A stretch of DNA of 64,000 nt from Cyanophora paradoxa CCMP329 (Eukaryota; Plantae; Glaucophyta), in contig QPMI01000445.1 in the NCBI GenBank assembly GCA_004431415.1, positions 1 to 64,000 on the forward strand, written 5' to 3'. The stretch's first letter is position 1; each line of letters begins with the position of its first letter. Shown piece after piece: positions 1-50,700 of this stretch. The position numbers and the translations under genes are program-made. Below the pieces are notes generated by a model. The model was not told the DNA's origin. It saw nothing but the letters and a program-made list of their open reading frames with translations, and ran no database searches.

Positions 1-1749
1 CTTAGCCTGCAACGTCATGATCAAAGAGTCTATAGCACCGGACGAGGGAGAGAATTACGACGTCGGCCTCTGAACCCTGGGCAGCATCTACGGTGATCAC
101 CTGAGCATAGAACAACAAATCAAATTTAATGCGTGAGACATCGAGTATTAATATTAATGAATCTGAAATCGAAGGCGATGTGCATTAAAAATTCTAGCGC
201 ACCTCGACGCGCTTGTCGGTGTCCGAGTAGCTCTTGATCGCGTCGCGCAGCTTTCTCGTCTGCATCTTGTACAGGGAGATGATCGCGATGCTGTGCCGCG
301 CGCTCTTGGCTCTCTCTGCTCGGTAGACCTCCATGACCTTGTCGACCTGGAGGTCGGCGTCGGCGGGAGAAATTAAATTAACGTCGACGTCACGATCAAC
401 GACATCGAAACGCACCTCGTCGAGGTTGAAGGGGGACGTTGAGTTGTGGTAAGTCTGTTCAAGACCTTGCACGTCGTGCCAGCGCAGGGCCTCCGCGGCG
501 GGGCGCCGCCTCTGGCTGGCGAGCCCGCTGCCATCGCGCAGCCCGCCATCGTAGAAGAGCGACGACACTATTGCACGAATGGAAGGATGCATACGGTACT
601 GTTCCCTGCGGAGGAATCGGTAAGATGGTGCTGATCGATATGAAGAGGAATTCGGAGCAAGATTCATGATCACAAACCGCAGCATAAAACAGGCGCCACG
701 GCTTTCCACGTTGACTGCGCTTAATTCCAAGCTCGAGCCCCCCACAAAAACTTCTGTTCGTCGCGGCATTCGACTGCACGCTCCATAAGGCTCCTTATGT
801 GCGAGCCTGCGGGCTGCAATGAGTTCTATAACACCAAATATAGCACACCATGGGGCGGTGATCATGATACACACGGTAAATAATCTTGTCGTGGTGCGAT
901 TGGGGCTCCTGGATCGCCGAGAAGGGCGGCAGCTGCTTGTGGTCGCCGACCAAGACGAGGTTCTTGGCTCCTGAGCATACGCATCAATCCGGCCCAGCGC
1001 CTATTATACTAGGGCATGATCATTAGACGCACCGAGGCGGAGGAGGAGGGGGATGGATGTCTCCGGAGTGCATGCCGCCTGCACAAATTTTAAATGCGAT
1101 ACATCGCCGGCCGCGAGTAAGATCTTGACTGCAATCTCTGATGATCATGATCACCTCGTCGACGATTGCGGTGTGGATCGAGACGTCCGTCACATGGTTG
1201 TCGGCGAGCTCCCGCATCATCGAACCTGTACACGTGCATGTCTCAGTGATCAGTCTTCCATAAACGATTCTTGTTGCTGCACCTGTTGCCGCGATTGTTG
1301 AAAGGTAGACGCGAGAGGTGCGGAGGATGTCCTTACGAGCCTCAATCTGCGCGGACATCGACGTTGGGCGATGGAGAGGGAAACGGCCCTCTCCTGATCT
1401 AGAGAAATCTCACCTTCTTCACCGTGAGAACTGCAGGAACTTCCGCTTCCAGCATGGCCGCGAGGCGGTGCAGGCGGCATATCCAGCGGAAACGGCGGCT
1501 GCGCGCTAGCATGTGGAGCCAAACCGAACGCAGGATCTTGCAGTGAACTCTCCAACGTTCGGATTTCTTCTGATCGTAGAGCGCCCTTCCTGGAAAGCGG
1601 AATTTAATTTGTTGGCTGCAAGTTCAAGCTTGCAGAATGTCTATATATTGGGCCAGGCGCACGGATCCGTGACTCCGCTCTGTTGATTCGGGCCTCCAGA
1701 GGAGCCATAAGCTCTTTGATGCGTGTGTCGGTACACTTCAGAAGGCGCA
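1..1749 (-). CDS. Host SF1 (UPF1/DNA2/NAM7-like) helicase, 3' part, multi-exon, interrupted by the viral insertion and running off the window edge
   Basis: Minus-strand exons carry SF1B motifs IVDE, KNLVLVGDHKQLPP, EQYRMHPSIRAIVSSLFYDGGL, IAIISLYKMQ and VITVDAAQGSEADVVILS. Confidence 0.85.
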
Positions 1750-1822
1750 ACACATATGAATATTCATATTTTAATCCCTCGGCGTTCCGCCTCAGGATTA
1801 AAATATGAATATTCATATGTGT
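1750..1822. repeat. Terminal 73-bp hairpin (perfect 28-bp arms, 17-nt loop), mirrored at 28089-28161
   Basis: ACACATATGAATATTCATATTTTAATCC (1750-1777) pairs with GGATTAAAATATGAATATTCATATGTGT (1795-1822). Confidence 0.95.
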
Positions 1823-2565
1823 GATTCGATGTTATATCAATAAAATCGATTAATTTATTTGAATTTTCACATGAATTTTCATATTTGTAAATGCATTTTC
1901 AATTAATTTAATCGATGTTATATCGATAAACTCGATTAATCGATATTGTATCTTAATTGTAGTTAATCGGAATTATATCAATAACTTCGATTGATCTTAA
2001 TTGAATCCTAAATGAATCTAATCGGAATTATATCAATAAATTCGATTAAATCATGTTCTTTTCCGATTAAATCAAATAAATATTTAACTTTGTTATCATA
2101 AGTGGTCTAAGTTGACTCACTTTTCATAAACATTTTGAACTCTTAGTCTCTTTGAATTTCTTAAGATGACTCAACTTAGTCAACTTAGTCAACTTTGTTA
2201 CCATAATCAATCAGGGTGGACTCACTTTTAGATCAACTTTGAAATTTCAAGCAAAATCAACTTGGATTTCAAAAGTGGATCTTCTAAGTGGACTCAAAAT
2301 GTTCACTTTGTGATACATGTTAGCTCAAATCCTTACTGTTTATGGTCAGGGTTGACTAAGTGGGGGAGTTGACACATTTTTTCAAATCCTTTTTAGAAAA
2401 CTTTAGGTCCCAAATATTTCCTGTGAAATTTGAGTCAACTCAACCCACTTAGTCAACCCTCCCATTGAATTCGTAACAAAATCCATATACTTTTACTACT
2501 TTTACGATTAATATGAGTCAACCTTGAGTCCACTTAAATATAAATATAATATAATAGGGGGAATC
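1750..2565 (+). repeat. Left terminal inverted repeat (816 bp)
   Basis: Reverse complement of 27345-28161. The only difference I noticed is G5 (2362-2366) versus C6 (27544-27549). Confidence 0.96.
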
Positions 2566-2859
2566 TAGGGCAGATGCTTAGAAACATATGAATTATTGAG
2601 CCTATGATACTTACATAGTCACGCTGGTCTCGTTGAGAGGATTCCGAATCTGTTTTTATCTTTGTGAGATGATGAGTTGGTGAAGAGATACATGCTTTTT
2701 AGTGTTTTGTATGGGAGTTTTCGATATGACGTCATCATGACGTTGCATATGTATATGATATATATGACACACGGGCGGACTCGGGAGATTATGACGATCA
2801 CGGCGATGTGTTAATTGTCATATTGTTTATGTATATATGTTTGGCGCAATCTGATTGGT

Positions 2860-3422
2860 GTGCTTGAAACCACATAATTCGTGCTTTAAACCACATAATT
2901 CGTGCTTTAAACCACATAATTCGTGCTTGAAATCACTTATTAAAAAATAATTCGTGCTTGAAATCACTAATTAAAAGATAATTCGTGCTTGAAATCACTT
3001 ATTAAAAGATAATTCGTGCTTGAAATACTTATTGAAAGATAATTCGTGCTTGAAATCACTAATTGAAAGATAATTCGTGCTTGAAATCACTAATTGAAAG
3101 ATAATTCGTGCTTGAAATCACTAATTGAAAGATAATTCGTGCTTGAAATCACTAATTAAGAGATAATTCGTGCTTGAAATCACTAATTGAAAGATAATTC
3201 GTGCTTGAAATCACTTATTAAGAGATAATTCGTGCTTGAAACCACTGATTAAAAGATAATTCGTGCCTAAAACCACTAATTAAAAGATAATTCGTGCTTG
3301 AAATCACTAATTGAAAGATAATTCGTGCTTGAAATCACTAATTGATAGATAATTCGTGCTTGAAACCACTGATTAAAAGATAATTCGTGCCTGAAACCAC
3401 TAATTAAAAGATAATTCGTGCT
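2860..3422. repeat. Tandem array: 3 x 21-bp units then ~16 x 31-bp units (GTGCTTGAAATCACTAATTGAAAGATAATTC)
   Basis: Near-identical head-to-tail units read directly; no unique spacers. Confidence 0.95.
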
Positions 3423-3424
3423 AA

Positions 3425-3524
3425 ATGAAATCGATTACATGATATCGATTACATGAAATCGATTACGTACATGAAATCGATTGCATGAAATCGATTACAT
3501 GAAATCGATTACATGAAATCGATT
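3425..3524. repeat. ~7 x 14-bp tandem repeat ATGAAATCGATTAC
   Basis: Read directly; contains the palindromic core AATCGATT. Confidence 0.9.
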
Positions 3525-3748: not shown

Positions 3749-5132
3749 CTAGCTAGTTTTGGTCCTTTCTCTTAGTGTTCTTTGAGGTTTAGGGGCTGTA
3801 TATGACTCCTTAGTAGTCTGAAAGTCATTATACCATCTCTGGCTATTCACTTCTGAAAGTTTCTGTGTCCCTGCTATAGTGAGCTTTTTGAGTTCCCTGC
3901 TAACTTTTCCAGCCTTCTCCTTCCTAGCCTCTATCAAAGGCTTATCTGGGACTTCATTAGCAGCTTCTATGCCTTCTCTCCTTATAGCAGCATCAACCCT
4001 AGCTTCCTCCTTGGCTTGCTCTAAGGCATCCACTGTAGGGGTTTCTAGATATTCAACTGCATTCACAGGCAACAGCTCATGGAAAGCAAACCTGTTTTCT
4101 ATGATCTCACCATTGGGACTCCTTAGCTTAAACTTAAAGCCTTCCCTACTATCAACTGTGTAAACCATCCTAGACCAATTGTTACCCTGTTTAGCAAAGG
4201 GTTCTTCTCAACTTTCACTCTAACAAACATGCCAGGCTGCATGGTATCAAGGTAAGCTATTGATTTCTTGAATCTCTCATCTTCTAATCCCACTATATAC
4301 CTATAATGCTCCTCTGTAGTTTCGCCTGGCTTCATCTTAGTAGCTGAGTGAACTGTATTATTGTAATTATACTCAATATCACCTAACACATCAAAGAATC
4401 TAGCTGTGTTATTAGCTATGCAATAGTTTGTGATCAGTCTCTTAATCTGCTTGTTAAAGGCTTCAATTCGACCTTGGCTTCTATGGTCAGCAGTTCCACT
4501 CACTTGGTGTTCTATGAATTTACTAGATAAATATTCCTGGAATATTCGATTTTGGAACTCACTCCCAGCATCTGATTGAACCTTTACTATGGGTCTTGCT
4601 ACTCTCATCTCAAGCTGTTTAAATGCAGCCAATGTAGTGAGAGCTGATTTATCCCTTATAGGTATGATATACCCAGTTCTCAGTGTTGATTCCATTGCAG
4701 TCATAAATGTATCATAGCCATTGTTTTGTTTCTTATAAGCTGGGAAAAAGAGCAAATCAATCACATAGGTATCAAGGGTTGCCTAATTGGGACCATGGGA
4801 TCTCTCTTCCTAGATATAGCAGGTGCATTGATCTGAACTACCTCTTGTTTTTTATAGAACTCTTGCAACTGCTTATAGGATTCATCTGGTAACTCAGCCC
4901 TCATAGCTTGAAGCCCTTTGTAACCAGTTCTCACATCATAGAATCTCTTGGCAATCTTGCTGGTTTCTTTCACTGCAATAGCAACTGGGATCTCTACTGG
5001 GACAAGCTCTTTCATCTCAGACTTTTTAACAATTCGAGATTCCCCTTTTTCCTCCTTTGGAATTGTGATAGGCAACAGGTTACCTTGCAGTTGCTCAGTG
5101 GTTCTTCTAACTATTCTTCCAGTTGCTGGCAT
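3749..5132 (-). CDS. Retroviral-like (rve) DDE integrase, split into 3 ORFs by two single-base homopolymer deletions
   Basis: Catalytic motifs VIDL, VQSDAGSEF and GRIEAFNK, plus YNNTVHSATKMKP. Adding 1 nt at ~4777 and ~4197 restores QPLDTYVIDL and NPFAKQGNNWSRMVY. Confidence 0.92.
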
Positions 5133-5135
5133 CTC

Positions 5136-8100
5136 TTAATTAAAAGGAACAGAATTAATACCATCTGGTAAGATGTATCTCTTTGCATCAAAGCAGTTTA
5201 GGGCAACCCTTCTACTCACAGTATCTATTATTGTGTGATCTGCCCTTCTCTTCTGCTTTGCAGTCACAGTCTTGCTGATACCTGCAAATAAACACTCCTT
5301 AAAATCATTAAATTGGAGTTCCTCAGTTGAAGTCCCAGAGAGCTTACTCCTCTCAATCTCAGCAGTTCTGAAACTGTAAACTTTGGCTCTGAGACCCACA
5401 TACTCCAATATAGCAGAACCTGGCATCTCATTTTTGTATTTACCTGGGTCATTCTGGAATCACCTCCAAGGTCTAATGCATAGGATATATTCTCTATATC
5501 TTTTTGTAAGGTCTTAGATTCAATATATAGACAGAAGGAGTCAGTATCATGGAATAGTAACTTTGCTTTTGTCCATTGGGACCTTACAGTATCATAGAAG
5601 AACTGGTAATTATGCAGTTTGGCTGCATCCAAAACATAAGCCCCAATTGCAACAGGCTTATCTAGTTTCACATGCTTTGTGTAAAACTCAAAAGCAACTG
5701 CTTTTTCGTTTATGGGACTTGTTGATTTCACCAATGGGGAAGCTGCATATTTCATAAATAGCTTCTCAGTATTAGCAATCTTTACCACAGATCTACCTCT
5801 ACATGATTCAATGCATTTCCCATAGATTGAATTATTCATCAGTTTATAGAAATCAGCCTCGAATTTATTCACTGCTTTCCTTCTCATCTCAGTGTTCAGC
5901 TCAATATAAGATTTCATTACAGGAGCCACAGTAAATGATAGGACCCTGTGAATTTTCTTTAATTTCACCCCTTTGTCCAACAGATACTGTAGGAGAGGCT
6001 CAGAAATCACATAGTTTGCCACAGAACCAAAGGTTGCAGTTAGCTTAGGGGTCTTATCAAGCTCTTCTCCTGAAAGATCCAACAGGCTCTTTTGATATTG
6101 TGATAATTCCGCATATTCTACTATTTTCTTGTTAATAATTAGGGGGAAATCACTGTGGTCTAGATATAGCCTTATTGGGTATTCCAGATCAACTTCCAGG
6201 AAACTGGATCTGTTATCTTGTGGGTTGAATTCGGTCTCCCATCTAAAATCACCAACTGGAATTGGCTGACTCAAACAGTAGCCATACAAGTTGTTAGCAT
6301 CAAACAGCATTATATGGGAGTTCTCACCATCAGCCTCAGCATACCTACAAGGCATTGTTGCAAAGCCACCCCTGATTCCCCTCTCAACAAATTCGTATTG
6401 CTCTACATCACTTATAAGCTCTATTTTTGCCTTGGTGGTCCTAAGCATAGCATCCCAAGATAACCCAGGTGCAGATACATAATGAACTGGGTCCAATCCA
6501 TATACTGAGTGTGAAAGCCTTCTAAAAGCCTGGAATTTGTTCATTAACTCATCTACATCAGCAGCTCCAAAATCCATGAAATTGCTTGCATCAATGAACT
6601 TGTAAAGACCCCATTGCAATGACAGGTATTGATCAAAGTTTTTCGAAAGGATTTCGATTCGCTTTTTATCACCCATGCCTGCTATTTTTCTGAAAATGAA
6701 TGTCCCACAGTCATCCATTTGGTCAACAACAACTGCAACTTTGGTTTGCTTTGAGATTCTCCTATGGAGATTGCAGTTTCTGCATGCAGGAGCAATATAA
6801 TGACCTGTGTGGTGATCATGATCCCTGCATTTGAAGTTTTCTTTAGTGAACCTCTCACTGCAAAGGTAACAGTGTTTAGTAGCCCTGTAAACAGCCTTTT
6901 GCTCATCTGTGAGTTCATTCATGGGAATATTGGTAAACAGGAAGTCAATTAGCTCTCTTGCTTTGGATTCCAAGCATTCAAACAGACCTCCCATTGGATC
7001 CTGACCCTCAAATCGAAAATCTTGAACATCTGCCCCAGTGACTATTCTAATGTTGACTGCTGAGACTTCCCTCTTGGATTTCGATGCATCTATGGGGATG
7101 CTTCTATGTTCAATCTTGCAGTAAACCACAACAGGAAGCCAAACAGTTTTCCTGAGGTTTTTCAGTCCAAACTCTATGGTGGTCTCAGGTTTTGGTGTGA
7201 TTCCCTTTGAGAGTCTCCAATCAATGCATCTGTTTGAGTCCACATGAGCAGTGAGTTTAGCCTCAGACCTGAATCGAGATAAGCATGTGTCACAGTAGTG
7301 TAACTTCTGATCATTGTATGTTTCATGGTTTACTTTCAATAGCCTTGAAAGGGACATGATTGTAATATAGTGACCATTCCCTTCATCATCAAATATCAGC
7401 ATGAGATTAACCTTATGCTTTCTGCCTGGGTTACTTGATTGATGCAGGGGATAAATAACCTCTCCATCGATTCCAAATATATTAATGCTAATGCCTGCAT
7501 TTTGAGCCTCGAATTTATCAATAATATCAGCATCACAGGCAACAGGGAATGGGATGTTATCGAAATTGAGAGCCAGCGGATTATAAGCGATTGCTGAGTA
7601 TTTCCATTTGCGATATTGTGAAAGCTCATTCCTCTTATGGGAGTTTATCGCTTTTCTGTGAATATATGCCAAAATTGCATTTTCGAAGCAGGAATCATCA
7701 ATATTTCGAATATTTACTGTGGCTCTCTTCCTAGCAATCCACTCTGGGGTTTGTAGAAAGCATCCACCAGTTGGAGCATAACTCATAATAGCCACTCTGA
7801 GTATTTCAATTCTTTCTAAGCGATAGCTATCAACCACATTCATCTGCTCCTGACACATTTGGGCTGCTTTATTCAGCTCAGTTCGAATATTTCTCGACCT
7901 GGTTAATACAAAGTAATCACTGTAAATGTATTTCGATATCCAAACCTGTGGATTGCTCACTTTAACGAACTTGCAGATAAAAGACAAGCGAACCTTGATT
8001 GCCCTGAATTGATCTAAACCCTGCTTTAATCGATTTGGAAGGGATGTAGCAATTCTATCCAGGAATTCAATCACATCTACAACAACTTCCCTTCTGGCTC

Positions 8101-8380
8101 TGTATGTGAGCCAGCGATATAATTCATTCATGGCTGTTCCATCTTCTGCCTCTGGTTCTATTTGCCTAAGCCTATCCAGTTCATCCAAGGTTTCAATTTT
8201 ATCATATAGGTTATTTGCTTTTCTGGTTAATCTGCTTAAAGTGGGTCTGCCCCTTGCAATTAAATCTATTTCCCGGTCATATTCAGCCTCTGTAATTTCA
8301 TGGGCTGCATAAAGTGTTCCCAGCAATCCCATGAGTTCCCATTTCTTCTCCCTTATGAGTTTGTTGGTAATTCGGGGCAT
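5136..8380 (-). CDS. Protein-primed family B DNA polymerase (N-terminal OTU-like protease motifs, C2H2 finger, EndoVII insert), one frameshift near 5447
   Basis: Polymerase motifs DANNLYG, KLMNNSIYGK and HDTDS. EndoVII-type CYLC...DHDHHTG...ACRNCN. DDSCF...GHY. Adding 1 nt restores TPGKYKNEMPG. Confidence 0.93.
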
Positions 8381-8440: not shown

Positions 8441-8791
8441 TTAAAATGTTTTAATGGATCCATTGGCTTCCTCTGAATGAAATCGCAAAAACCTATTAAT
8501 CCTAAATCGAGATTTCGGTTTTTGTAGATTGACTATCCAAGGTTCAAACAAATACATGTAATATGCTTCTCTGTTCATAAGGTCTTCATGCCCACCCTTC
8601 TTAGTTGAATAAAGGACTGAAAACCTCACATCAGAAGCCTTGCATAGGTCTGCTGTTGATGGCATTTGACCTGATTTGTGTTGTTTCCATCGGATATGTA
8701 GTTTTTGTGAGGTTCTCCCTATATAAACTTTATTCAATTCTTCACTCTCAATCATATAGATCGATCCAGAATCATGATCTGTTCCAGCCAT
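8441..8791 (-). CDS. GIY-YIG endonuclease
   Basis: GSIYMI...KVYIGRT...RWKQH...REAYY...N. Confidence 0.88.
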   Translation of the reverse strand: MAGTDHDSGSIYMIESEELNKVYIGRTSQKLHIRWKQHKSGQMPSTADLCKASDVRFSVLYSTKKGGHEDLMNREAYYMYLFEPWIVNLQKPKSRFRINRFLRFHSEEANGSIKTF

Positions 8792-9028: not shown

Positions 9029-11628
9029 CTAAACTTCAACTTCAACATCTGAATCATAATCTGATGCATCAGGATCAGCAGCAGGTAGGTCTTGTTTCAT
9101 CCTTGGATTAGCTTCTTCCTCAATAGTTTCATCATCTACAAGTTTCATCTTTCTGAATTCCTCAAATACTTGTGGGAATAGGAAATGATAGTATTGTTTG
9201 CCATTTGTAGTTTTCACTTGGATATATGTCACACTTCTCATTTCAGTATAATACCTGCGACTATTATAATCGTTTTTATATTTATTGCTGGTAATGAACT
9301 CCTGGAACCATTTCCAGGTTTCCACAAGGCTACCAGACTTGCATTTATTCTCGGAAATTAAGCCTCGATCCACAAGCCACTTAGTGAACATAAGAATGAT
9401 TGGAGCGCACACCTGTTGGGCTAAATAGTATTTATTTGTAAGGGGTCTATCAGCAATCCAGTTCACATCCTCACAGTCAACTTTGGTTCTCAAATAGTGG
9501 GCAATGTTTCGAATATTGCAGTGATCATTTAGCCATTTTACAAGTGGAAGGAAGTATGACCTATCCTTTGCGAATTTCTTACTAACTTCAACAACCACAA
9601 ATCGCCTATCTCCAGCTTCAATTTTCACTGGAATGTTGTTATTGCTGGTGAATATAATCCTGGCAAAGTTGCTTTTTGTGTATGAATCTATCCCTTTGTG
9701 TTCAATTACAATCTTATCAGAAGTTATGAGATCTTTGAGCATATCATTATTTTCGAATGTGTCCTTGCCTGAGGCTTCATTCACAACAATCAAGATCTTA
9801 TCCTCTCTATTGTGGGCAAATCGACCAAACAGATCCTCTTTTGGCTTTCCAGTTGCATAACTTAGGGCATCTCCAAGTATCTTCTTTTGGAAAGTATCAA
9901 CCAACACATTTTTACCAGTTCCCTGCTCACCAATGAAGATTAAGGATACTCCATTGAGTTCCCCAGGCTTTTGCAGCATGTGGGCAAACCATTTCAACAG
10001 ATATTCATAGGTATTTTGATCCTCACCAGACATTAAGAACAAGTGATCTAGGAAAGGCTTAATCATCTCAGCAGTTACATCCTCTGGAGCATTTTCGAAT
10101 TGCTGATGGTCGACCTTCATTCCTGGATAGAGATTAAATACAGACTTGCATTTTGCACTGAGAGTAGCAGGAGGGGAAGGAAATCCATGTAAGTTGATCT
10201 TGTGGCTGTTGGATCCACAATCCATTTCCTAAATGATTGCTCCCATTTCTCTTTCTCATTATCTGTTCCCTCATTGACAATCACCTTATGCATCAAATGG
10301 GGGAAATGCTTTGTAGAGAGCTTCCCAATATCTTTGGGCATCCAGCAAAGTAGTTGTTCATCCCAGAGCATCACACAACCAACATTTTCAACATGATGCA
10401 TTCGAGCATTGAAATACCTCTTATGCACATTGTAATGTTCAGCCAAAGGAGGGATACTTGCAGTCTTGTAATCGATTTCATCTGTGTCCTCTGGTAGGAA
10501 TGCATACTTTTTGGGGAAGAGTTCCTTGAAAAGCTCATTGTTATCTTTGCTCAACCAATAAACCAAGGATTTGAAGGTCAACACTTTGCCAGGCTCAGCC
10601 TTCTTCTTGCTTCTGCGAAGCTGTGTAAACTTCTCCTGGCATTCATCATAATCATACTTGTCACTCTGTTCTGAGAATTGGTGGAAGAGTTCAGCTTGCA
10701 TTTTAGGGGTGAACTTGTTGTCTTCCCCAACATTGATGATGACCAGTCCTACATCAATCCAAGTTTTATACTCATTAGCTCTCTCACCATTCAGACCCAT
10801 TATAACACTTTGTAGCAGTTCGAAAGTAACAGGATTTTCGGGTTCAGTGTCTTTTTCAGCTTCTACCTTCTCAGTCTTCACTTTATCACTTTTTGGCTCC
10901 TTTTTAACTGGTTTTGGCTCAGGGCTATAATTTGCGAATGCAGAAATATTCGATTCATCCACAAGTTTAGTAGAAGCTGAGAAGAAAGATACAAAGAAGT
11001 CCTCATTTCGCATTAACACTTTGTCACAGTCAACGAATTTCTTAAAGCAAACGTTTTTATCAACATCTTTCTTTGATTTATTTTGAGCATCCAGAGTCTC
11101 ACCTTTGCAGCAATTGAGGCAGATAAGGTTCTGTGTGGAGCTGTAAACTCCACTGTCATAATCCTCATTTTTCACCAATCCCATAGCTTTGAAAAGCTTG
11201 GGGATATCTTCATGTTTGCATGCAAGCGATTTAATGATAAAGTGGGCTGAGATCTTGAACTTGGTGACATCCTCCTTGATCAAATAAACCCTTCTATGGC
11301 GAACTGCAACAGCAATATCGTTAATCGAAGTGGTCCCAGATCGCTTCCATAGCTTATCTCTCATCTCTCTTACAACAGTTTCAGCCTCAGCATAGTTTTC
11401 AGCAATGTTCTCCTTCAAATCAGCGAATTTATCCAGGTCCAGGTAAACTCTGGTGACTTGTTCAGGCTGAATGCATTCAGCCCAGGTCTTAACCTTGCTA
11501 TTATCAATGGCTTCAAGGGCATCTTCAGCAGAATCAAATACATGGGTGACCTTGTTGCGATCACCAATGAGAGTACTAAGGAATGTAGCATTTTCAACAG
11601 GGGTGGCGAATTTCTCGATTTTGTTCAT
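9029..11628 (-). CDS. AEP primase + PriCT-2 + D5-like SF3 helicase, one frameshift near 10175
   Basis: AEP motifs RVYLDLD, SAHFII and YDSGVYS. PriCT-2-like YKTWIDVG...FSEQSDKYD. Walker A GEQGTGKN, Walker B VVNEA, motif C FTSNN. Confidence 0.9.
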
Positions 11629-13611: not shown

Positions 13612-14394
13612 TTATAAACCGCGTTTATATCGCATCAATTTATTGCTATGGACTTGGCTTTTCACTTCTTTAGGGGCTTCCTCTTTCTCTGGTGGTTTCA
13701 GTTCATCTTCTTTCTTCTTGGGCTTCCTGTGGAAGCGAGGAAAATCGAAATCTCCAACTAAATCGGCTTTATCAACATAGTAGCCCACATTATACTTGAA
13801 AGATGTATAAACAAGGAACTGGTATGAGTGGACATACTCTTCAAACAGTTTATAGAAATCTTCTTTTCGAGGAAATGTCGAAAACTCCTCTGCAAATGCT
13901 TCCAGCTCTTTTTGATTGCTTGCACAAACCATAATTACTATATCACTATTGCAGCGAATTACACTTGCAACCTTTCGTAATTTCTGAGAGATAGTTATTA
14001 TTGATATATTCACATGTCTGCCACGAACATAAAGCATTCCAACTGTTTTATCTCGACTGAGATCCAGCTGGTCATTTTCTATCATATCCTCTAAAATCAC
14101 CAGCATATGGTTAAGTTCTTCTCCTTTCTCCCTTTTTGCCTCTCTTTCTTTTATAATTTTCGACATGTATTGGGGATCCCATGCACCCAGTTGAACAGTA
14201 GCAGCTTTGTCCCAGAAATGTGAGAATGAGGTAGCGGATATAATAAGGGTTGTATCAATCTTTTTGGCATCATGCAGCTGTTTCAAATAATATTTTACAG
14301 CTTCTGTTTTTCCGCATCCACTTTTTCCGAGTATGAGTAGTCTGAAAGGGGGTTCTATCATTTCACCAGCATTAAATTCTTCCAGATCTTGCAT
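13612..14394 (-). CDS. A32-like (FtsK/HerA) DNA packaging ATPase
   Basis: GKSGCGKT, LVILEDM, RGRHVNISIITISQ, IRCN. Confidence 0.93.
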   Translation of the reverse strand: MQDLEEFNAGEMIEPPFRLLILGKSGCGKTEAVKYYLKQLHDAKKIDTTLIISATSFSHFWDKAATVQLGAWDPQYMSKIIKEREAKREKGEELNHMLVILEDMIENDQLDLSRDKTVGMLYVRGRHVNISIITISQKLRKVASVIRCNSDIVIMVCASNQKELEAFAEEFSTFPRKEDFYKLFEEYVHSYQFLVYTSFKYNVGYYVDKADLVGDFDFPRFHRKPKKKEDELKPPEKEEAPKEVKSQVHSNKLMRYKRGL

Positions 14395-14459: not shown

Positions 14460-15338
14460 CTACAAATTTATACGACGAAGCCCATCTTTGTCCAAAATTA
14501 TATAGGAATGCATGAGAGCGCGAACATTAACATCGATTACCTTATCTGAAGGCATGTACAGGGTGAGGAATGAAGAGGAGGAATTTGTTAAATCAACATA
14601 ACCAGACTGGGCAATATTTCGAATTGCCTTCTCTCCATCAATGCAGAAACTTAAACCTGAAAGGACATAGCGATCAGCAACCTTATCCATGTTAGAGCAT
14701 TTGAAGGCATCAGCAATTAGCTCAGCACCTTTGAGTAGGGAAATTGGCTCAGTGGCATAAAGTCGCTGTCCATTAATTTCAACAGTGAAAGTAATATCTT
14801 TGGAGTTGGCATAGGTCTTAAGAACACTGTGGGAGCCAGTGGATTTATCAACAGTTGCATTATCACGAACTGAAACAAGCAGAGCATAAACAAGACCTGA
14901 GATTTGAGAGAGGTTAATTCGATTGGGTTGGGCATTGCCCTTGGCAGGGAAAGCACTAGCATCTACAAATCCAATATCAAGGGAGGGAATATGGTAGGTG
15001 TAAGATCCATAGGTAATTTCAAGTCGCTGAACTAAAGCACCAACTGGGCGAGTGTATCCATTGCGAACTAGGTCAGTATCACCAGCAAACGTGATGGCTG
15101 GAAGGTCGAAAGCAAGTTCGAGTTTTCCACAGAAATTGTAGCGAGGTAGCTTGAAGGAAATGCGATTTCCAACATTATTCTCAAAAGTATTGCTGGGATT
15201 CACAACAACTAGAACTGGCTTAGATTTGGATTCGAGACCAAGCATAAGGGAGTTATCCAGGAAAAAGGCTTTCGCCTCTTCTGGGGTTGTTAGGGCTTCT
15301 TTCAGCGAAAGTCTTTGAAGAGTGGAAGTGATATCCAT
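14460..15338 (-). CDS. Major capsid protein-like (double jelly-roll), only 292 aa, apparently internally deleted
   Basis: GNRISFKLPR..LELAFDLPAI..GALVQRLEITYG and the C-terminal SF..SGYVDL resemble NCLDV/PLV MCPs. Lies between the ATPase and a penton. Confidence 0.7.
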   Translation of the reverse strand: MDITSTLQRLSLKEALTTPEEAKAFFLDNSLMLGLESKSKPVLVVVNPSNTFENNVGNRISFKLPRYNFCGKLELAFDLPAITFAGDTDLVRNGYTRPVGALVQRLEITYGSYTYHIPSLDIGFVDASAFPAKGNAQPNRINLSQISGLVYALLVSVRDNATVDKSTGSHSVLKTYANSKDITFTVEINGQRLYATEPISLLKGAELIADAFKCSNMDKVADRYVLSGLSFCIDGEKAIRNIAQSGYVDLTNSSSSFLTLYMPSDKVIDVNVRALMHSYIILDKDGLRRINL

Positions 15339-15391
15339 TATATTCTCTTTTATTATACTGCAACATAAAAAATCTACCAATGATCCTTAAT

Positions 15392-16402
15392 TTATGCGAA
15401 GTTTGTAATAACTGGATAGGAAGGGTGAAGCTGTGACATTCGCATCTTGAAGTATTCATAAACTGGGTCCCCAGCTGGCTCATCACCATAGCGAATTTCA
15501 AAGGTAAGATGAACAGGTTGACCCTCAAAATCAATTGGTTCATTAATAGCATTTACAATATCAACCGAGAAAGTGGATAATCCAACCTTTTTATTATAGT
15601 ATTTGTAAAGTGGGTGAGCTTCTGTTGAATTGTAAACAACATGCTCACCATAGTCTTTATCAGGGACCACTATTTTGTGAAAGTAACCAGTCAGAAGACC
15701 ATCCCCACATTGCACCAGATCACCCAGCTCCTTTACTCTCACAAACAAAACACTGTCCCTGGTCTTCTCAGGCTCAAAAGAAGATATAATGCCATTCACG
15801 CGACCACCAGTAAAGATTCCATCAGTGAGAGCATCATAGACCTGTGATTGGATTGGGGAGTTACCATATCTTCCAGGATCAAGACCCAGCAGTCTAGCTG
15901 AACTCAACAGCTTTTGGATTGTTTGTTGGCTTGGGTTCACAGCTACTGAGAAAGCCAAGTAAAATGGTACTGCTGAGTGGAATATAATTCGTTTCAGTGA
16001 TTCATCCCATTTGCAGCGAATGGATGGTTGGGGATTTCTGCCTTCGAATTTAGAGTTAATTACATTCACCAGTTGCTGGTGGCTTTGGATGGGGGTGTTT
16101 CGACTTATAATGAATTGTTTCCATTGTTCATAGTCAGCAGCTGGGCGAACTGTTGGAATTCCTGAGCTTCCAGCTCCAGGAGTTTGTTCAGAATAATAAA
16201 TGCTAAATGCATTGTCAACTGTCACATCTCCTGCTTTGGTTTCACCACTCACCATAGGGATACTGTTATAAAATTCGGCTGAGACCAGTCTCACAGCCCT
16301 CACATTCTCATAACTACTGGGGAGTCTAGCCACAAAGCTTGATGTGGGACCATCACCAGAGATTGTATTAAATGAGCTAACCTCGATGTAATCCACAGGC
16401 AT
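15392..16402 (-). CDS. Minor capsid (penton) protein 1
   Basis: SFVARLP..NVRAVRLVSAEFYNS and DIVNAINEPIDFEGQPVHLTFEI match the single jelly-roll penton pattern. Confidence 0.85.
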   Translation of the reverse strand: MPVDYIEVSSFNTISGDGPTSSFVARLPSSYENVRAVRLVSAEFYNSIPMVSGETKAGDVTVDNAFSIYYSEQTPGAGSSGIPTVRPAADYEQWKQFIISRNTPIQSHQQLVNVINSKFEGRNPQPSIRCKWDESLKRIIFHSAVPFYLAFSVAVNPSQQTIQKLLSSARLLGLDPGRYGNSPIQSQVYDALTDGIFTGGRVNGIISSFEPEKTRDSVLFVRVKELGDLVQCGDGLLTGYFHKIVVPDKDYGEHVVYNSTEAHPLYKYYNKKVGLSTFSVDIVNAINEPIDFEGQPVHLTFEIRYGDEPAGDPVYEYFKMRMSQLHPSYPVITNFA

Positions 16403-16431
16403 TCTTCTTTTATCTATATTTATATATTAAA

Positions 16432-17364
16432 ATGAACCGGCTCGTTAATATTGATAGCAGGGATAGAAGCCAAGGACAAAATGAAAACTCTTACAGGGTC
16501 ACCCTCACAACTCCAGTAGAGAGACCAAGGGAATGTAGGGTTCTCTATGCAGAGATTCCAAACAGTATCTATAACAGTGTGGGAACTGATCATCTAACAG
16601 TTCAGTTTAATTACCAAGATGGTTCATATAACCAAGTGATCACACAACAAGTGTATCCCCTTCCCAGTGGCTACATCAATCAGGGTCATTTTGGGGTCAC
16701 ACACCCTTATAATTATGGGCTGAACTATTCAAGCTTCCAAACTATTGCAGGCAAAACAGTAGCTTTTGAGTTCAAGATATTCTACAACCCAACAACCTAT
16801 AAAGTGGAGTTTTACAGTAACCATGAGTTTCGTTTTATTGCAAGCAACCAGAGAATAGGAAAGCTTTTGGGTGTAAGTTCTACTGAATACACTAATGGGT
16901 ATTATAGCACTCCTCCTGTTGGTGGATCTCCATATCGACCTGAGAACCTTTTAAAGTATGATGGCAAACCTATTACACCTGATCACCCAGCATGGGGAAT
17001 CACCTTCTCAGGACCCAGACTCTCCTCTAAGCCCTTGCAATATTATTTTGACAGCAGGAAGATGTCTGATATGAATGCTGAGCAGTATCTGTACATGCAT
17101 ATTAAAGAGCTGTCCCCCTTTGCCAGCAGACACAATATAATTCCAAAATCGCAACCACAAAACCAGGGAGCTATCCTTAGATTGCAATTGAGTAAAGATA
17201 TAGGGGGCTATGTTTACCATAGTGGTGAACATGCAGAATTTATTCAAATCAATGACAGAAACCTGGTGATAAGGGAACTCACAGTTGAGTTTAAAGATTA
17301 CTTTGGTGAACTGATTGATATGAATGGAATCGATAATTCTTTTCAGTTGGAGTTTATCGAATAA
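16432..17364 (+). CDS. Minor capsid (penton) protein 2
   Basis: IDSRDR..SYRVTL..AEIPNSIYN and LTVEFKDYFGELIDMNGIDNSFQLEF. Confidence 0.87.
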   Translation: MNRLVNIDSRDRSQGQNENSYRVTLTTPVERPRECRVLYAEIPNSIYNSVGTDHLTVQFNYQDGSYNQVITQQVYPLPSGYINQGHFGVTHPYNYGLNYSSFQTIAGKTVAFEFKIFYNPTTYKVEFYSNHEFRFIASNQRIGKLLGVSSTEYTNGYYSTPPVGGSPYRPENLLKYDGKPITPDHPAWGITFSGPRLSSKPLQYYFDSRKMSDMNAEQYLYMHIKELSPFASRHNIIPKSQPQNQGAILRLQLSKDIGGYVYHSGEHAEFIQINDRNLVIRELTVEFKDYFGELIDMNGIDNSFQLEFIE

Positions 17365-27098: not shown

Positions 27099-27344
27099 TG
27101 GGTTTCTATAATGATAAACAGGGTAATTTACCTTTTTTATTACAATGGCAATCGTTAAAAAAGGATATAATATATCCTTTCCTACAATAGCTTTCTACAA
27201 TGATTTTCTTTCTACAGTAGCTTTTGTTACAATAGAATTCTACTGTATGATGTAGCCGAAATATGAATGCACCCTACATTAAGCAATGTCAAGTATTTCG
27301 AATACTATTCGATTTCCTTACAATAACACTCAGCATCTCCCCTT

Positions 27345-28161
27345 GATTCCCCCTATTATATTATATTTATATTTAAGTGGACTCAAGGTTGACTCATATT
27401 AATCGTAAAAGTAGTAAAAGTATATGGATTTTGTTACGAATTCAATGGGAGGGTTGACTAAGTGGGTTGAGTTGACTCAAATTTCACAGGAAATATTTGG
27501 GACCTAAAGTTTTCTAAAAAGGATTTGAAAAAATGTGTCAACTCCCCCCACTTAGTCAACCCTGACCATAAACAGTAAGGATTTGAGCTAACATGTATCA
27601 CAAAGTGAACATTTTGAGTCCACTTAGAAGATCCACTTTTGAAATCCAAGTTGATTTTGCTTGAAATTTCAAAGTTGATCTAAAAGTGAGTCCACCCTGA
27701 TTGATTATGGTAACAAAGTTGACTAAGTTGACTAAGTTGAGTCATCTTAAGAAATTCAAAGAGACTAAGAGTTCAAAATGTTTATGAAAAGTGAGTCAAC
27801 TTAGACCACTTATGATAACAAAGTTAAATATTTATTTGATTTAATCGGAAAAGAACATGATTTAATCGAATTTATTGATATAATTCCGATTAGATTCATT
27901 TAGGATTCAATTAAGATCAATCGAAGTTATTGATATAATTCCGATTAACTACAATTAAGATACAATATCGATTAATCGAGTTTATCGATATAACATCGAT
28001 TAAATTAATTGAAAATGCATTTACAAATATGAAAATTCATGTGAAAATTCAAATAAATTAATCGATTTTATTGATATAACATCGAATCACACATATGAAT
28101 ATTCATATTTTAATCCTGAGGCGGAACGCCGAGGGATTAAAATATGAATATTCATATGTGT
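27345..28161 (-). repeat. Right terminal inverted repeat (817 bp)
   Basis: Mirror of 1750-2565; ends ...CATATGTGT, followed by the TSD GGCGCA. Confidence 0.96.
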
Positions 28162-30068
28162 GGCGCAAAATCTCTTTCTCGCGATTGTGCACGAAGAGAA
28201 CGCAAGGGTGCCTCTCAACCTTTCCATCGATATCACGAACAATCGCAAGTCAGCCGCAGATTACAAATACTGATCATATGCATGCTGCCGATGAATTCTC
28301 GAGATCGCTTACCCGCTCGTCAAGCGTGTTCTTCTTCGCCGTCTTGCCAATGCGCGATGGATTACCGAAGACGATGAATCGATCCGGAAGGTCCTCGTGC
28401 AGCTTCTCGGCGACAGAATCAACAGCCTTGTTCCTCTGCTCGACCGGTTCGCAGTCAAAATCATAGATCAGTTAAAACGATAAATGATTAATATATGCGC
28501 GCGCGCATATGCACCGTGCACGTGACATGAACTCGTTCACTCAAGGGCACGCGCTGCTCGATGATGGACACGATTGTTGTGCTGCACGCATGCGCAGCTG
28601 ATTAAATGTCGTGCTAGCACTCGATTCATGATCACGAGTGCTATAGCTAGTGCTAGTGCCGCTGTACCTTTTTCCAGTTCCGGGAGGCCCTGCTTATCCA
28701 AAATTAAATCAGAACGCAACTTCAACGTCTGAATGTGAATCCGCATGCGCACCTTGGATGGACTCAAGATTGTACCGAAGACCCGACACGGCGGTCCGCT
28801 GCGAGGCGTTCATGCGAGCGGCGATGTGGCCGGCGTGCGAGTTCTCAGTCCAGCTCCCAAGAATGTGCTTGGAGGGGTTGATGACAGCGGAGATCAGGCT
28901 TTGGTCGAACGTGACCATGGGACCTGTATAGACCGGAGCGGCATGATTGGTGTGGAATAGCGGCGTGAGCGAGCTGTGAAGATGCGAGGTCTGCAGACGG
29001 CGAGGGCGGTCGCGCGCGGCGACCCCGCCGGCCAGATCGTTGGCCGCCTGATACTCGCGAACGTAGCTCCCAACGAAGCCCAGAGCCGTGGCGGGGAGCG
29101 GGCTCAAACCGAGGACGGACTCGAGAGACGGCTGCACGTCGACCCGGACCTGCGACAATTTCAGCTTATAATTATCCGCGATCGGACGGATTATATATAA
29201 TTATTTCTTCCAAAAGAACAATCGAAAAGCACCGTCGTGTCCTCGCGTTCGGTGTACGGGTCACGGCTGGTGGTCCGCGAGCGCTCGCGAGTGACGGCAT
29301 ACAGCCGCCGACCAATCACAAGAATGGACTGGCCGAAGTTCGCGAGGGGGGAGTCATTCTGCATGCAGAACAGAAACGTTAAAATATATTGATGGGAGAA
29401 GTTCTAATTACATATAAGGAGAGCCCCGGCCCCTGCACCTCGGAAGAGGATTCTCGCGATTGCTGATCGCGGTCATTTGTCGTCGACGCCGCGGACTGCG
29501 AGAAGGAGATGATGATGCCGCGCTCTTCTCCGTTCCCCCGCGACCGGTCATCCCAAGTGAGCTCTACCTCCGGAAACCGCACGCTCGCCCCGGAAGAAAG
29601 GGCGCCCCGTCCGCTGCTCTGACGATCGACGTGTTCTGCGTAGGGCTGTACATTTACACAGTGTTAAAAAGGAGCCCAAGAGACATCGCAATCGCATTTG
29701 CAAGGGAGACAAGTACAAACCTGGACCACTGCCGCGTAATACTCGGCGAGAATGTTGTTCGCGAGAGCTTCGCCGTACGCTTTTTCGCTATCGGGTCTCC
29801 GCTCGATCATCGCCAACTTCACAGGACCCTCTACGGTGAGAAAGGGCTCCCACATATCGGGGAGCGATCCGGGATTGTGCGGCTGCGGGCGCCAGCGCGG
29901 CCCGTCATTGAAGCGGTGGCTGCTGGAATGGCCAGAAGATGCGGAGTAGGGACGTGAGCCGCCGAAGCCGCCGCGAGAGCCGTAGCCGCCGCTGCGCGAG
30001 CCGTAGCTGCCGCCGGAAGAGCCATAGCCACTGCGGGCGCTACGCGGAGCCCACCCGCTGCGGTTCAT
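28162..30068 (-). CDS. Host SF1 helicase, 5' part (G/S/R-rich N-terminus, Walker A GPPGTGK), multi-exon
   Basis: GPPGTGK is encoded near 28670-28690. Removing the element and one TSD copy restores the frame ...VHNREKEILR|LLKCTDTRIKELM.... The start at 30068 (MNRSGWAPRSARSGYG) is tentative. Confidence 0.75.
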
Positions 30069-30464: not shown

Positions 30465-30495
<31 letters not shown>

Positions 30496-30539
30496 GGGGG
30501 GGGGGGACGGGCGGGACGGGCGGGGCGGGACGGGCGGGG

Positions 30540-37300: not shown

Positions 37301-37966
37301 GTAGGAGAGCGCCACGGGCTGGTTGGGGTCCTGCCGGGCCGGGCGTCAGCGCGAGGCGCTGGGCGGGGCGGGGGGGAGAAGGGCGCGCCTCGAGGACGAC
37401 GTTGCGGGGCTCCTCGGCGAGGTACTCGGCGAGGGTCACGCGGGGGCGCACTCGGGCGCGCCCGGCCGCCTTGCGGGGGTCGAGGGCCTGGACGGGCACG
37501 AGCTGCGCGCCCTCCTCGGCGCGCGTGCGGTACGTCGTCACGGCCATCGAGTCCTCCAGCATCTCCCGGAGGCGCGCGTAGCCGCGGCCCCGGCCCTCGC
37601 GCAGCGCCGCGAGCACCTCCTCGGGCCCGTACGAGTGGGCGCGCGCCGCCGCGAGGAGCGCCGCCGCGTCCTCGTCGGCGGCCTGGCGCCCGTCGGGCAG
37701 CGCGAAGCGCGGCCACAGGAAGCTCTGCCCGCGGCGCGTCGACGGAGGGGGGGCGGAGGAAGGGGCGGCGGGGCGGGGGCTGCGCACGTCGGCGATGAGG
37801 GCGCGGCCGTCGTCGTCCTTGGTGAGGGCGGCCGGCCAGCGCGGCATCGCCCCGCGCTCCGAGGGCGCGCAGGCCTCCCCGAAGAGGTTGTTGAAGTCCG
37901 CCAGCGCCGCCGCCGCCTCCTCGTCGAACTCCTGCGCGCGCGGCGCCGGGCGGTCTTAGAGGGGGA

Positions 37967-37998
<32 letters not shown>

Positions 37999-47779: not shown

Positions 47780-50700
47780 GCCAGGCGAGCTCAACGGGGA
47801 CGAGGAGGTGCCCGCCTGCGCGGCCCGGCGTTGCGTGTATCTGACCCTTCGTTCAGTGTGATCTGGGAGGGACGATGGTGCCTGGCGGCCTGAATGGCAG
47901 AGGCGAGTGGTCCGCGGCGATTCACTGGAGTACGAGCTGACGGGTCGCACGCAACACAGGGCAAAGCTGGGATATGCAGTGCACTGCCAAGTGCATGATC
48001 AAGCCTTTCTGCGGCGACGGCATCCGCGGGCCCAAGAACGTCGGCCACGACTGCGAGCAGTGCGTGTCGCGCCGCGCTTAGCTATCGCCCTGGGCTGGGC
48101 GCGGCTTGGAGCGAGCGGCGCGCAGGTGCGACGATGGGCCCAGCGGCAACGGGTTCGGCTTCTTCCAGAAGTGCGACAGCCTGTGCAACCTCAAGAACTA
48201 TTGTGGAGGTGCCGCGCGCCCCGCGCGCCCGGCGGCGGGGCCGGCGGCGGGCTCACGCGCCGCCGGCAGACGGCAAGATCGACTGGGGCAACGAGCCGAA
48301 CGCCGAGCGCATCGTCTACCGCAACTACAAGGAGAAGCCGGTCTTCGCGAACGGCTTCGACCACATCCAGAACAACAACAGTGCGCCCGCCCGCCCGCCC
48401 CGCGGGCCCCCGGGCCGAGCCGCGGCGGCAGAGGTGAACGTCGTGATCGAGAACGGCGTGGAGCGGCGCGAGCAGTGTGAGCGGCGCCCCCGCCCCCCGC
48501 CCTCCGGCCCCCGCTGCTCCTCGTCTCACCCGACGCGCGCGCAGGCGACGACGGTGCGCCCGCCGCCGGCCCGAGGAAGACCCGCGTCCGCGGGAGCCGC
48601 GGGCCGTGCCCGCTTAGCTAAGGGACCGCAGGCACCGCGAACGGCGGCATGGACAAGTGCACGCAGGAGTGCAGTGCGCCCGCTCGCCCCGCGCCCTGCC
48701 CCCCCCGATCGCGCTGACTTTCGTGCCGCAGAGGTTCCCGTCTGCGGAGGTGCACCCCGCCGGCTCTGCCGACGGCGCGGCCCGCGGCCCCGCGCCTGAC
48801 CGTGCCCCGCAGACAACCTGGTGAACCGCTCCGCCGAGCAGTGCGGTGCGCGCGCCCCGGCCGCGGCTCTTCTTCGGGGCGCCGACGGTGCGCCCCAGAC
48901 GACGGGAAGGCCAACGGGGCGATGGACAAGTGCACGGCGACCTGCCTGAAGCCCGTCTGCGGGTGCGCGCCGCCCCGCCGCTTCATTTTCCCCCCTCCAG
49001 CCCGCATCCAACCCGCGATCCGCAGCGATCAGATCGTCAACCGCTCCTCCGAGCAGTGTAAGGGCCTTCCCACGGGCGCCTCCGGGCTGCACGGCGCGCC
49101 GACGCCCGCCCGCCCTTCCCGCCGCAGGCGACGAGGGGGGCCTCAACGGGCAGATGGACCGGTGCGACGACCCGCCCCGCCGCCCCGCGCCCCGCCGCCG
49201 GCCTCACGGGCGGCCCGCAGGTGCACGAAGGACACGTGCCAGCTGCCCGTCTGCGGGTGCGCCCCGTCCCCCAAAGCGCGCTCGCGCTCGAGGCCGGCGG
49301 CTTACCCGCTCTCTCCCAGCGACGGCCTCGTTAACAAGTCGTTCGACGACGCACGCGGCCCCGCGGAGGAGTGCGGTGCGCTCGTCTCTTCCATACCCCC
49401 CTACCCCTCCTACCCCCCCCCTCCTCCCCCCCCCCACACCGCGTTGCCTCCCTCCACTTCCGTCGCCTATCCTCTTCAGATCCTCTTTCCCTACGCCTCT
49501 GCCTCCCTCCACTTCCTCCTCTTCTCCCCCCCCTCCTCCTCCTCCTCCTCCCCCCCCCCCCCCCCCCTCCTTTCCCCCGCCCTCGGTCACTCGGCCCGTC
49601 CTCACCGCTCACCCATCCCACCCCCGCCCATCCTTCCGCTTCTCCACTGCCTCTCGAGTCGCTGAAACCTGGCCGGCTCTCGCAGACGACGGCGGGATGA
49701 ACGGGCTGGCGAACAAGTGCACGGCGGCCTGCAAGGTCCCCGTCTGCGGGTGCGCCCCCCGTATCCGAGAGCGTCAAGCTCCCCTTGCTGATCCGGTGCA
49801 TGCAGCGACGGCCTCGTCAACCGCACAGTCCCTGACAACCGCGGCCCGGCGGAGCAATGCGGTGAGCTGCGCCGCGGCCCGACGAGTCGGGCGCTGGCTG
49901 GCCGCCGAGCTCGCGCCGCAGACGCGGGGCGCGCCAACGGGTCCATGGACACCTGCACGTCCTCCTGCCAGAACCCCGTCTGCGGGTGCGCCCCATGCGC
50001 GACTCCGCCGCCCCGCCACACTCACGTGCCCGCCCTCTCGTCAGCGATGGCCTCGTCAACCAGAAGTTCGAAGTCTGGTCAGCCTCCCGCGCCCCTTGCT
50101 CGCCCCTGCCCGCCGTGCTAATCCGCCCTGCAGCGACGACGGGTCGCTGAACGGGGAGCGCGACCGCTGCGTCGCGACGACCTGCCAGGTGCGGGGAGGG
50201 GCCCGCCGCGCGACCGCCTCGGCCCTCCTGTGACGCGCGCCGAGCAGCCCCCTCGCTGCGGCGACGGCCTGACCAACGCCACCGGTGCGCTGCGCCCGCC
50301 CCGGGCCGTCGCCCTCGAATCTTGACCCCCGGAGCCAGGCGAGGAGTGCGACGAGGGCGACAAGCTCAACGGGCAGAAGGACCACTGCACGGCCACCTGC
50401 AAGAAGCCCGTCTGCGGGTGCGCGCCGGCGTGTCGCTTTCCCTCCGGAAGGCGGCGCCACTGACCCGGTCCCGGTCCCGCAGCGACCAGCTCGTCAACCG
50501 CGCCGGGGAGCAGGTGCGGCGGGTCTTCGTCTTTGTCGCCCGCTTTCTTGAGTGACGCCGCCCCGCCTGCCTCCAGTGCGACGACGGCAACCAGAACGGC
50601 CAGATGGACAAGTGCATGATGAACACCTGCCAGGTGCGCCGGCCTTGCGGCGGGTCGCCGGCACCTCATGCTCACGCCCCGTGCAGCTGCCCACCTGCGG

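Follow-up and report, generated by a model that had tools for sequence, protein, structure and literature searches.

Elements of the Polinton/Maverick type canonically end in 5′-AG...CT-3′. Parvoviruses, as exemplified by the ITR of AAV and the telomeres of MVM, carry terminal palindromes with a small asymmetric internal element and use rolling-hairpin replication, and a primase-helicase module of the D5 type accompanies the hairpin telomeres of pox-, asfar- and chloroviruses. The target-site duplication (TSD) is 6 bp long in polintons according to the accessible part of PMC12747079, and it measures 5-6 bp in mavirus and the MPEs (PMC8547959). A preprint of July 2026 on Halocafeteria seosinensis (bioRxiv 10.64898/2026.07.28.741278), the first on such ends in related protist viruses, reports, in its accessible text, palindromes within the terminal inverted repeats (TIRs), beside the TSDs, of endogenous virophages of subtypes 1, 2, 5 and 6 and of a polinton-like virus (PLV) of subtype 4. 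According to the same text, these palindromes are proposed to support hairpin-primed replication, accidental annealing is named as the alternative, and the palindromes occur preferentially with replication genes other than that of the protein-primed family B DNA polymerase (pPolB), which is a tendency and not a rule. In our literature search, this preprint was the only paper found that joined virophages, terminal palindromes and hairpins. The words "hairpin" and "palindrom" are absent from the main text of Hackl et al. (2021; PMC8547959) and from the Tetraselmis PLV preprint, and the accessible part of PMC12747079 mentions terminal hairpins only for the TIRs of giant viruses.

The window analyzed here, a stretch of 64 kb from Cyanophora paradoxa, contains an integrated element with a palindrome of 73 bp at each end. 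The left palindrome occupies positions 1750-1822 on the plus strand (outer arm 1750-1777, tip 1778-1794, inner arm 1795-1822), and the right palindrome, at 28089-28161 on the minus strand, is its exact reverse complement. The two palindromes form the outermost bases of the left TIR (1750-2587, plus strand) and of the right TIR (27323-28161, minus strand). These repeats are approximately 0.83 kb long (about 838 bp) and consist of 612 identical nucleotides, a 1-nt homopolymer difference and a further 226 nt with 7 mismatches. The 6-bp TSD, GGCGCA, directly abuts the left tip at 1744-1749 and the right tip at 28162-28167, and the right junction was also found in the public sequencing run X1. Because GGCGCA lies outside both tips, the element spans 1750-28161, or 26,412 bp. 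Its GC content per kilobase is 31-42%, compared with 55-81% in the surrounding host DNA. The sequence-only reading of this DNA had regarded the palindromes as the termini of a Polinton-type element; with a pPolB, an rve integrase and a 6-bp TSD at the exact edges, they are the true termini of an integrated element of this type.

Several other repeats and host features were observed in the window. A 55-bp subterminal repeat is present in 2.4 copies at 1918-2049, within the TIR, and three tandem arrays (31 bp × 16.4, 21 bp × 3.7 and 14 bp × 6.9) lie at 2860-3524, interior to the left TIR only. Contigs of the runs X1, X2 and X5 connect position 2807 with position 3575, which indicates that the arrays are missing from other copies of the element. 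On the minus strand of the host flank, positions 194-874 encode an AAA_12 helicase domain (E = 7e-16). Removal of the element in silico yields a plus-strand frame of 146 codons across the joint, and the insertion may therefore lie in or near a host gene. Between 31000 and 44000, a 13-kb block with a GC content of approximately 80% contains long ORFs on either strand and in several reading frames, and none of the six frames scanned (0/6) had a Pfam match. A cysteine-rich unit that ends in ...CCCGTCTGCGG recurs 17 times or more in the region 48600-59100, and the sequence after it, GTGCGC, is probably a splice donor. This arrangement suggests a many-exon gene for a cysteine-rich repeat protein, and a Pfam search with seven ORF pieces of the region gave no match. 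Long homopolymer runs of G or C occur in the host DNA at 30479-30506, 37966-37998, 49551-49568 and 57766-57786. Finally, the ATG of the inner-arm motif starts ORFs that run outward into the host at 1604-1816 (minus strand, 70 codons) and at 28095-28466 (plus strand, 123 codons); these ORFs are probably due to chance.

The palindrome had been described from the letters alone as a perfect 28-bp stem with a 17-nt loop containing a GGCG-TTC-CGCC mini-stem, present at both termini, with a 16-bp palindrome in each arm and with ends of the form 5′-AC...GT-3′ that depart from the canonical 5′-AG...CT-3′. Each part of this description was confirmed. All 28 bases of the outer arm, ACACATATGAATATTCATATTTTAATCC (1750-1777), pair with the inner arm (28/28; 1795-1822), and in the loop CTCGGCGTTCCGCCTCA (1778-1794) the segments GGCG (1781-1784) and CGCC (1788-1791) enclose TTC. 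The 16-bp palindrome ATATGAATATTCATAT is located inside both arms, at 1754-1769 and 1803-1818, and the ends of the element, read directly at both tips, are 5′-ACACA...TGTGT-3′, in which ACACA is a dinucleotide reiteration. The mini-hairpin is the sole GC-rich spot of an AT-rich tip and is flanked on each side by three unpairable bases, which form a 3 × 3 bubble (CTC/TCA). One-off snap-back copying would be expected to leave CTC and TCA fully paired, and the asymmetry of the bubble therefore looks as if it has been kept. Folded as single-stranded DNA, the 73-mer reaches −29.5 kcal/mol. For 200 dinucleotide-preserving shuffles, the mean is −4.29 with a standard deviation of 1.78, so that the 73-mer has a z-score of −14.16, and none of the shuffles (0/200) folds as well. 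In addition, the two end palindromes are the only inverted repeats of the hairpin type (a perfect stem of more than 10 bp and a loop of at most 40 nt) in the 26.4-kb element. The earlier suggestion that the arms might adopt branched or cruciform folds was not upheld, because the branched fold, in which each arm folds on itself, is energetically poor (−7.9 kcal/mol; the plain hairpin with its mini-stem tip reaches −29.5 kcal/mol). An Rfam search of the window gave no matches.

We propose that the 73-bp nested palindrome at both TIR tips serves as the hairpin-forming genome end of an integrated Polinton-like virus, and we assign to this reading a probability of roughly 45%. A single-stranded end would fold on itself as a 28-bp hairpin with the small GC mini-hairpin as its cap; from the folded 3′ terminus, DNA synthesis would then be primed or turned around, by which the linear genome could be copied to its last base. 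The free genome would presumably unfold and refold its ends. The extended duplex would then be restored by nicking across from the original 3′ end, where the inner arm borders the interior near 1822/1823; the encoded GIY-YIG nuclease and the HNH/EndoVII-like domain of the polymerase are candidates only for this step. The extended duplex would be the substrate that the rve integrase joins to host DNA, yielding the 6-bp duplication. The position of the palindrome argues for a hairpin end, as it is exactly terminal, abuts the TSD and is the sole strong hairpin in the element (z = −14). The structure of the tip argues in the same direction, because it is not a plain loop and instead combines a stable GC mini-hairpin with a 3 × 3 bubble, the asymmetry of which appears to be maintained.

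Further evidence was obtained from public sequencing runs. The stretch or part of it occurs in 20 listed runs of one organism, among which there is no RNA run, and contigs were built from their 31-mers. The contig of the left host flank enters the tip with 0 differences and reaches 1778 in X1, X2, X4, X5 and X6 and 1776 in X7. The loop is spanned by contigs that extend from 1756 to 1804, 1808 and 1809, again with 0 differences, and at the right junction a loose end in X1 is the reverse complement of 28168 onward. The terminal palindrome is not an assembly artefact. Moreover, loose ends at 1744, 1822, 1824 and 1825 connect this tip to no fewer than four further GC-rich host flanks, which indicates that the last base of the tip was the integrated end in several independent insertions. 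The depth of the loop-spanning contig is 2595, 4722 and 7229 in X1, X6 and X7, compared with 73, 188 and 308 for the single-copy flank; the depth of the tip is thus approximately 24-36 times that of the flank, a ratio that is not a copy number. Many copies with an identical tip and differing flanks are present in the host. Between 1700 and 1900, no alternative letter reached a share of 1% or more in any of four runs (4/4). The presence of an identical tip on at least four other host flanks, with no variant at a share of 1%, favors the hairpin end, whereas a recent burst of copying, which may by itself account for this uniformity, weighs against it.

The orientation of the loop can be followed in these data within narrow bounds. 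A 31-mer covers the 28-nt arm plus three bases, and contigs inside the palindrome read alike in flip and flop. Flip/flop heterogeneity, the signature of hairpin transfer, was not seen among the contigs inspected, which leave out some of 90-95% likeness (16 in X1, 2 in X2, 6 in X6 and 1 in X7), but an assembly from 31-mers has no means of connecting a loop with the bases outside its 28-nt arms. Only at the left end of this locus is the loop orientation tied to a flank, five runs agreeing on C at 1778. Both ends of the locus have the same outside-in loop orientation, an agreement that has a chance of one in two and is uninformative. In X1, X2, X6 and X7, a contig runs along the outer arm and into the loop for 8 letters before departing at 1785/1786, at most 1 nt from the dyad center, and a 20-mer of the loose end behind 1785 has no match in the window. 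Possible sources of this contig are an element family with one arm only, an insertion into the apex and a hairpin that had been opened.

According to the accessible text of the Halocafeteria preprint, the palindromes described there also occupy the outermost part of both TIRs, beside the TSD, in integrated elements that encode a capsid and an RVE integrase, and they are of comparable size (52 nt in subtype 5, compared with 73 nt here). That palindromes beside TSDs were found there and that the same hairpin-priming model was proposed for them favors the hairpin end, whereas their preferential occurrence in elements without pPolB, as reported in that text, disfavors it. The present element differs in that it has a pPolB and a D5-like primase-helicase together, and its host flanks have a GC content of 55-81%, in contrast to the 47% stated for H. 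seosinensis. In addition, the mini-hairpin with its 3 × 3 bubble, the 16-bp sub-palindromes and the third copy of the terminal motif are not described in the main text of the preprint, as far as that text is accessible. The terminal palindrome reported here belongs to the kind described in the preprint, and its distinctive features are the nested asymmetric tip and its presence in an element that carries pPolB.

The comparison can be extended to viruses with established hairpin ends. As in parvovirus hairpins, the terminal palindrome encloses a small asymmetric element, the extended duplex carries both arms, a recognition motif is repeated in the stem, and nicking at the inner border would rebuild the terminus. 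Unlike parvoviruses, the double-stranded element is 26 kb long and has capsid and packaging genes of the Polinton/PLV type, and no HUH protein of the Rep/NS1 type was found among its scanned ORFs. With the telomeres of pox-, asfar- and chloroviruses it shares AT-rich, incompletely paired hairpins on long TIRs and a primase-helicase of the D5 type. However, the palindrome here lies unfolded in the chromosome, its free outer end is joined by the integrase, and no resolvase was found among the scanned ORFs. The element resembles Polintons/Mavericks in its pPolB with an EndoVII-like insert, its rve integrase, its TIRs of hundreds of base pairs and its 6-bp TSD, and it differs from them in its 5′-AC...GT-3′ ends with a 73-bp palindrome; the relative L033, which ends in AGTAGT...ACTACT, serves as an example without one. 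It also differs in that no adenain-like protease was found among its scanned ORFs.

The gene set of the element bears on how its ends might be copied. The rve (DDE) integrase at 3749-5132 on the minus strand (Pfam rve, E = 4.3e-4) is split over three frames (5132-4761, 4764-4123 and 4168-3749), and an intact relative of 463 aa, P0121, is 79% identical to it. There are 5147 relatives of this integrase in the representative library, and 38 of 39 aligned relatives match rve. Across the relatives, D128 and D190 never vary and E226 varies hardly at all, and the spacing is that of D,D35E. The Polinton-type pPolB at 5136-8380 (minus strand) has an EndoVII/HNH-like insert and a C-terminus that is off-frame (5426-5136). 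Among the candidates scored, it has 776 relatives with E ≤ 0.001, the closest of which is 45% identical, and most of the named ones are from animal genomes. The presence of this polymerase disfavors the hairpin end, as a protein-primed enzyme needs no hairpin. A D5/P4-like primase-helicase is also encoded, in two overlapping ORFs at 9029-11628 on the minus strand (PriCT-2, 11628-10117; DUF5906 helicase, 10225-9029), and this module favors the hairpin end.

The sequence-only reading had further pointed to a GIY-YIG nuclease and an EndoVII domain as encoded in the element and had related both to possible self-priming or hairpin resolution. A GIY-YIG nuclease and an EndoVII-like stretch are indeed encoded. 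The GIY-YIG nuclease (8441-8791, minus strand; Pfam E = 2.4e-9) is a protein of 116 aa that comprises the catalytic domain only. It matches a subfamily of group I intron endonucleases weakly, and a PDB sequence search with it gave matches at chance level only. The EndoVII-like stretch lies inside pPolB and has an E-value of 4.8e-4, which falls short of the cut-off of Pfam. A special link of this domain to hairpins was not supported, because PF02945 (EndoVII) is found in 32 of the 120 pPolB relatives listed and also in the plain-ended L033; the domain therefore belongs to the polymerase lineage and not to the hairpin ends, and its lineage-wide distribution counts against the hairpin end. In the scanned ORFs of the element, there was no HUH (Rep/NS1) nickase, no tyrosine recombinase or telomere resolvase, and no RuvC-type or other Holliday-junction resolvase, which likewise disfavors the hairpin end. 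A helper virus could be the source of a resolvase.

The remaining genes include an A32-like DNA-packaging ATPase at 13612-14394 on the minus strand (Pox_A32, E = 5.5e-14) and a major-capsid-like protein at 14460-15380 on the minus strand, which is approximately 160 aa shorter than its sole relative, P0271 (62% identity). In the feature clusters nearest to P0271, 12-18% of the members have Capsid_N or Capsid_NCLDV, which is a lead only. Two divergent penton-like genes occupy 15392-17364 (16402-15392 on the minus strand and 16432-17364 on the plus strand). A common N-terminal motif was seen in them by eye, and their resemblance to viral clusters of the DUF5901 type is likewise a lead only. Neither of the two capsid-like proteins had a match by sequence in the PDB. 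Further Pfam matches in the element are to a patatin-like lipase and a fibre-like protein. A Pfam scan of 27 + 5 ORFs of the element revealed no protease family and hence no adenain-like maturation protease, although a divergent protease could escape such a scan. The genes of this copy look damaged, in that the frames of the integrase, of the pPolB C-terminus and of the primase-helicase are broken and the capsid-like gene is shortened. The G-run at 2357-2361 consists of five G in the left TIR and of six in the right TIR and in the read contigs, a difference that suggests errors in the assembly as a possible source of some of the broken genes.

A bolder form of the proposal is that a virus carrying pPolB copies its ends in the manner of parvoviruses or poxviruses, with the nested tip as the origin and with the GIY-YIG or HNH nuclease in place of an HUH nickase. 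We regard this form as improbable. If it were true, it would amount to a hybrid strategy of end replication, of which no example is known among the dsDNA viruses of this realm, and hairpins that had been opened and joined elsewhere would have left their trace in the contig that departs at the dyad apex.

Relatives with similar ends were sought in several collections. Exact searches with the arm gave no matches, either for a 28-mer in IMG/VR or for a 24-mer in the JGI metagenomes, and this lack of relatives with an identical tip in the two collections counts against the hairpin end. Three IMG/VR loci with the two-copy motif pattern (L001-L003) were rejected as unrelated direct repeats. In IMG/VR, neither the integrase core nor the penton-like protein, each used alone as query, retrieved any relative, and a tblastn search of a phage collection with the integrase gave no match. 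A profile of the integrase recovered 24 IMG/VR loci, among which only L008 has TIRs; L008 was rejected as a similar end because its stem is only 10 bp long and starts 12 nt from the end. The hairpin scan covered these 24 loci and 80 metagenome loci with pPolB relatives (33-40% identity), that is, 104 loci with 705,963 bases, and found 14 perfect stems of at least 14 bp in 11 of the 104 loci. A 19-bp hairpin of L027 was rejected as paired ends, as it is a dispersed repeat present at no fewer than six places in the record (at least 6). Possible ends are a 27-bp stem located 16 nt from the contig start in L065, which by eye also resembles a promoter palindrome, and an 18-bp stem located 21 nt from the start in L056. 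In L041, at 5820-6020, three hairpin copies that share the 17-nt loop TTTCATGGGGGTGGGAT lie 3′ of a Polinton-type polymerase, near the contig end. The hairpins of L065, L056 and L041 might be element ends.

Only two of the 104 loci, L008 and L033, are complete elements with TIRs. The polymerase of the metagenome element L033 (1-15309) is of the Polinton type and shows the weak EndoVII match seen in the present element, and the integrase is of the rve-chromo type. The TIRs of L033 start with 5′-AGTAGT and contain TTAGGG-like telomere repeats, and its ends, AGTAGT...ACTACT, have no palindrome. The plain ends of L033 indicate that the palindrome is a lineage-specific addition and not a general by-product of elements with pPolB and rve integrases, and this specificity to a lineage is a further point in favor of the hairpin end.

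The same relative bears on the first alternative, according to which the palindrome is part of a protein-primed origin with a "mini-panhandle". A terminal protein would start at the 3′-TGTG end, with 5′-ACAC sliding back, and the displaced strand would fold back and re-create a 28-bp duplex origin. The two 0.83-kb TIRs would then not need to meet, the hairpin would never be copied round, and the loop would never flip. The adenovirus ITR offers a parallel, in that it also belongs to a linear dsDNA with identical inverted ends, a short terminal reiteration and a protein-primed polymerase of family B; in contrast to the present element, its ends are not palindromic and the regeneration of its origin needs the pairing of two distant ITRs. 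This alternative is supported by the pPolB of the Polinton lineage, with its 776 relatives among the candidates scored, by the dinucleotide reiteration ACACA at the end, by the reiterated 5′-AGTAGT end of L033, and by the identity of the TIRs over 612 nt, as if the ends had been copied from each other or corrected. That no flop variant was noticed also agrees with it, weakly, given contigs of 31-mers. However, L033 manages without a terminal palindrome, no terminal-protein domain was identified in the element, and the frame of pPolB is broken near the C-terminus in this copy. Furthermore, we know of no protein-primed replicon with a terminal palindrome. On balance, we consider a protein-primed origin of this type unlikely.

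In the second alternative, the ends would be an array of binding sites, on which a dimeric end-binding protein (the integrase, a packaging protein or an origin protein) recognizes ATATGAATATTCATAT as duplex DNA, and the palindrome would be a duplicated integrase end, a possibility already raised in the sequence-only reading. The distribution of the 12-bp palindromic core ATGAATATTCAT is in agreement with this proposal. The core is present in three copies per end, at offsets of 6, 55 and 121 from the tip, and the third copy, ATGAATTTTCAT (1871-1882, mirrored at 28029-28040), has 1 mismatch. Its 6 matches in the 64-kb window all fall within the two ends, compared with a chance expectation of 0.09. 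Because the third copy lies outside the palindrome, the motif appears to matter independently of the hairpin symmetry. In addition, the integrase acted precisely at the last base of the outer arm in several insertions. However, a binding-site array leaves unexplained both the symmetry of the full 28-bp arm and the GC mini-hairpin at the dyad center. Moreover, palindromes of unrelated sequence occur in other virophage and PLV lineages, according to the accessible part of the Halocafeteria preprint, and terminal palindromes of unrelated sequence across lineages point to structure rather than to a shared sequence. We therefore find it doubtful that binding sites account for the palindrome, and we continue to prefer the hairpin-forming genome end.

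The weakest alternative, a neutral scar in which one accidental fold-back in a founder, through snap-back synthesis or the repair of a broken end, left an inverted second copy of the terminal 28 nt that then spread with the family without function, could draw on the accidental annealing after single-strand breaks that the accessible text of the Halocafeteria preprint names, on the uniformity of the copies, which makes a single recent founder plausible, and on the contig leaving behind 1785 in four of four runs, which hints at one-armed forms, but we judge it very unlikely, because the palindrome is identical at both ends and must at least have been copied from end to end, because the 3 × 3 bubble would be unlike the product of simple snap-back priming, and because the same type of tip arose in several other lineages, as the same text reports.

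No experiment has yet revealed how Polintons, polinton-like viruses and virophages complete the ends of their linear genomes, and protein priming has been assumed from the family of the polymerase. Terminal palindromes suggest that fold-back ends are used in some lineages, instead of protein priming or besides it. The element described here is a useful test case, as it has both candidate replication modules, a well-defined asymmetric tip and many near-identical copies in a host that has been sequenced repeatedly. A count of loop orientations in long reads could tell hairpin transfer from protein priming without the need for a new wet-lab system.
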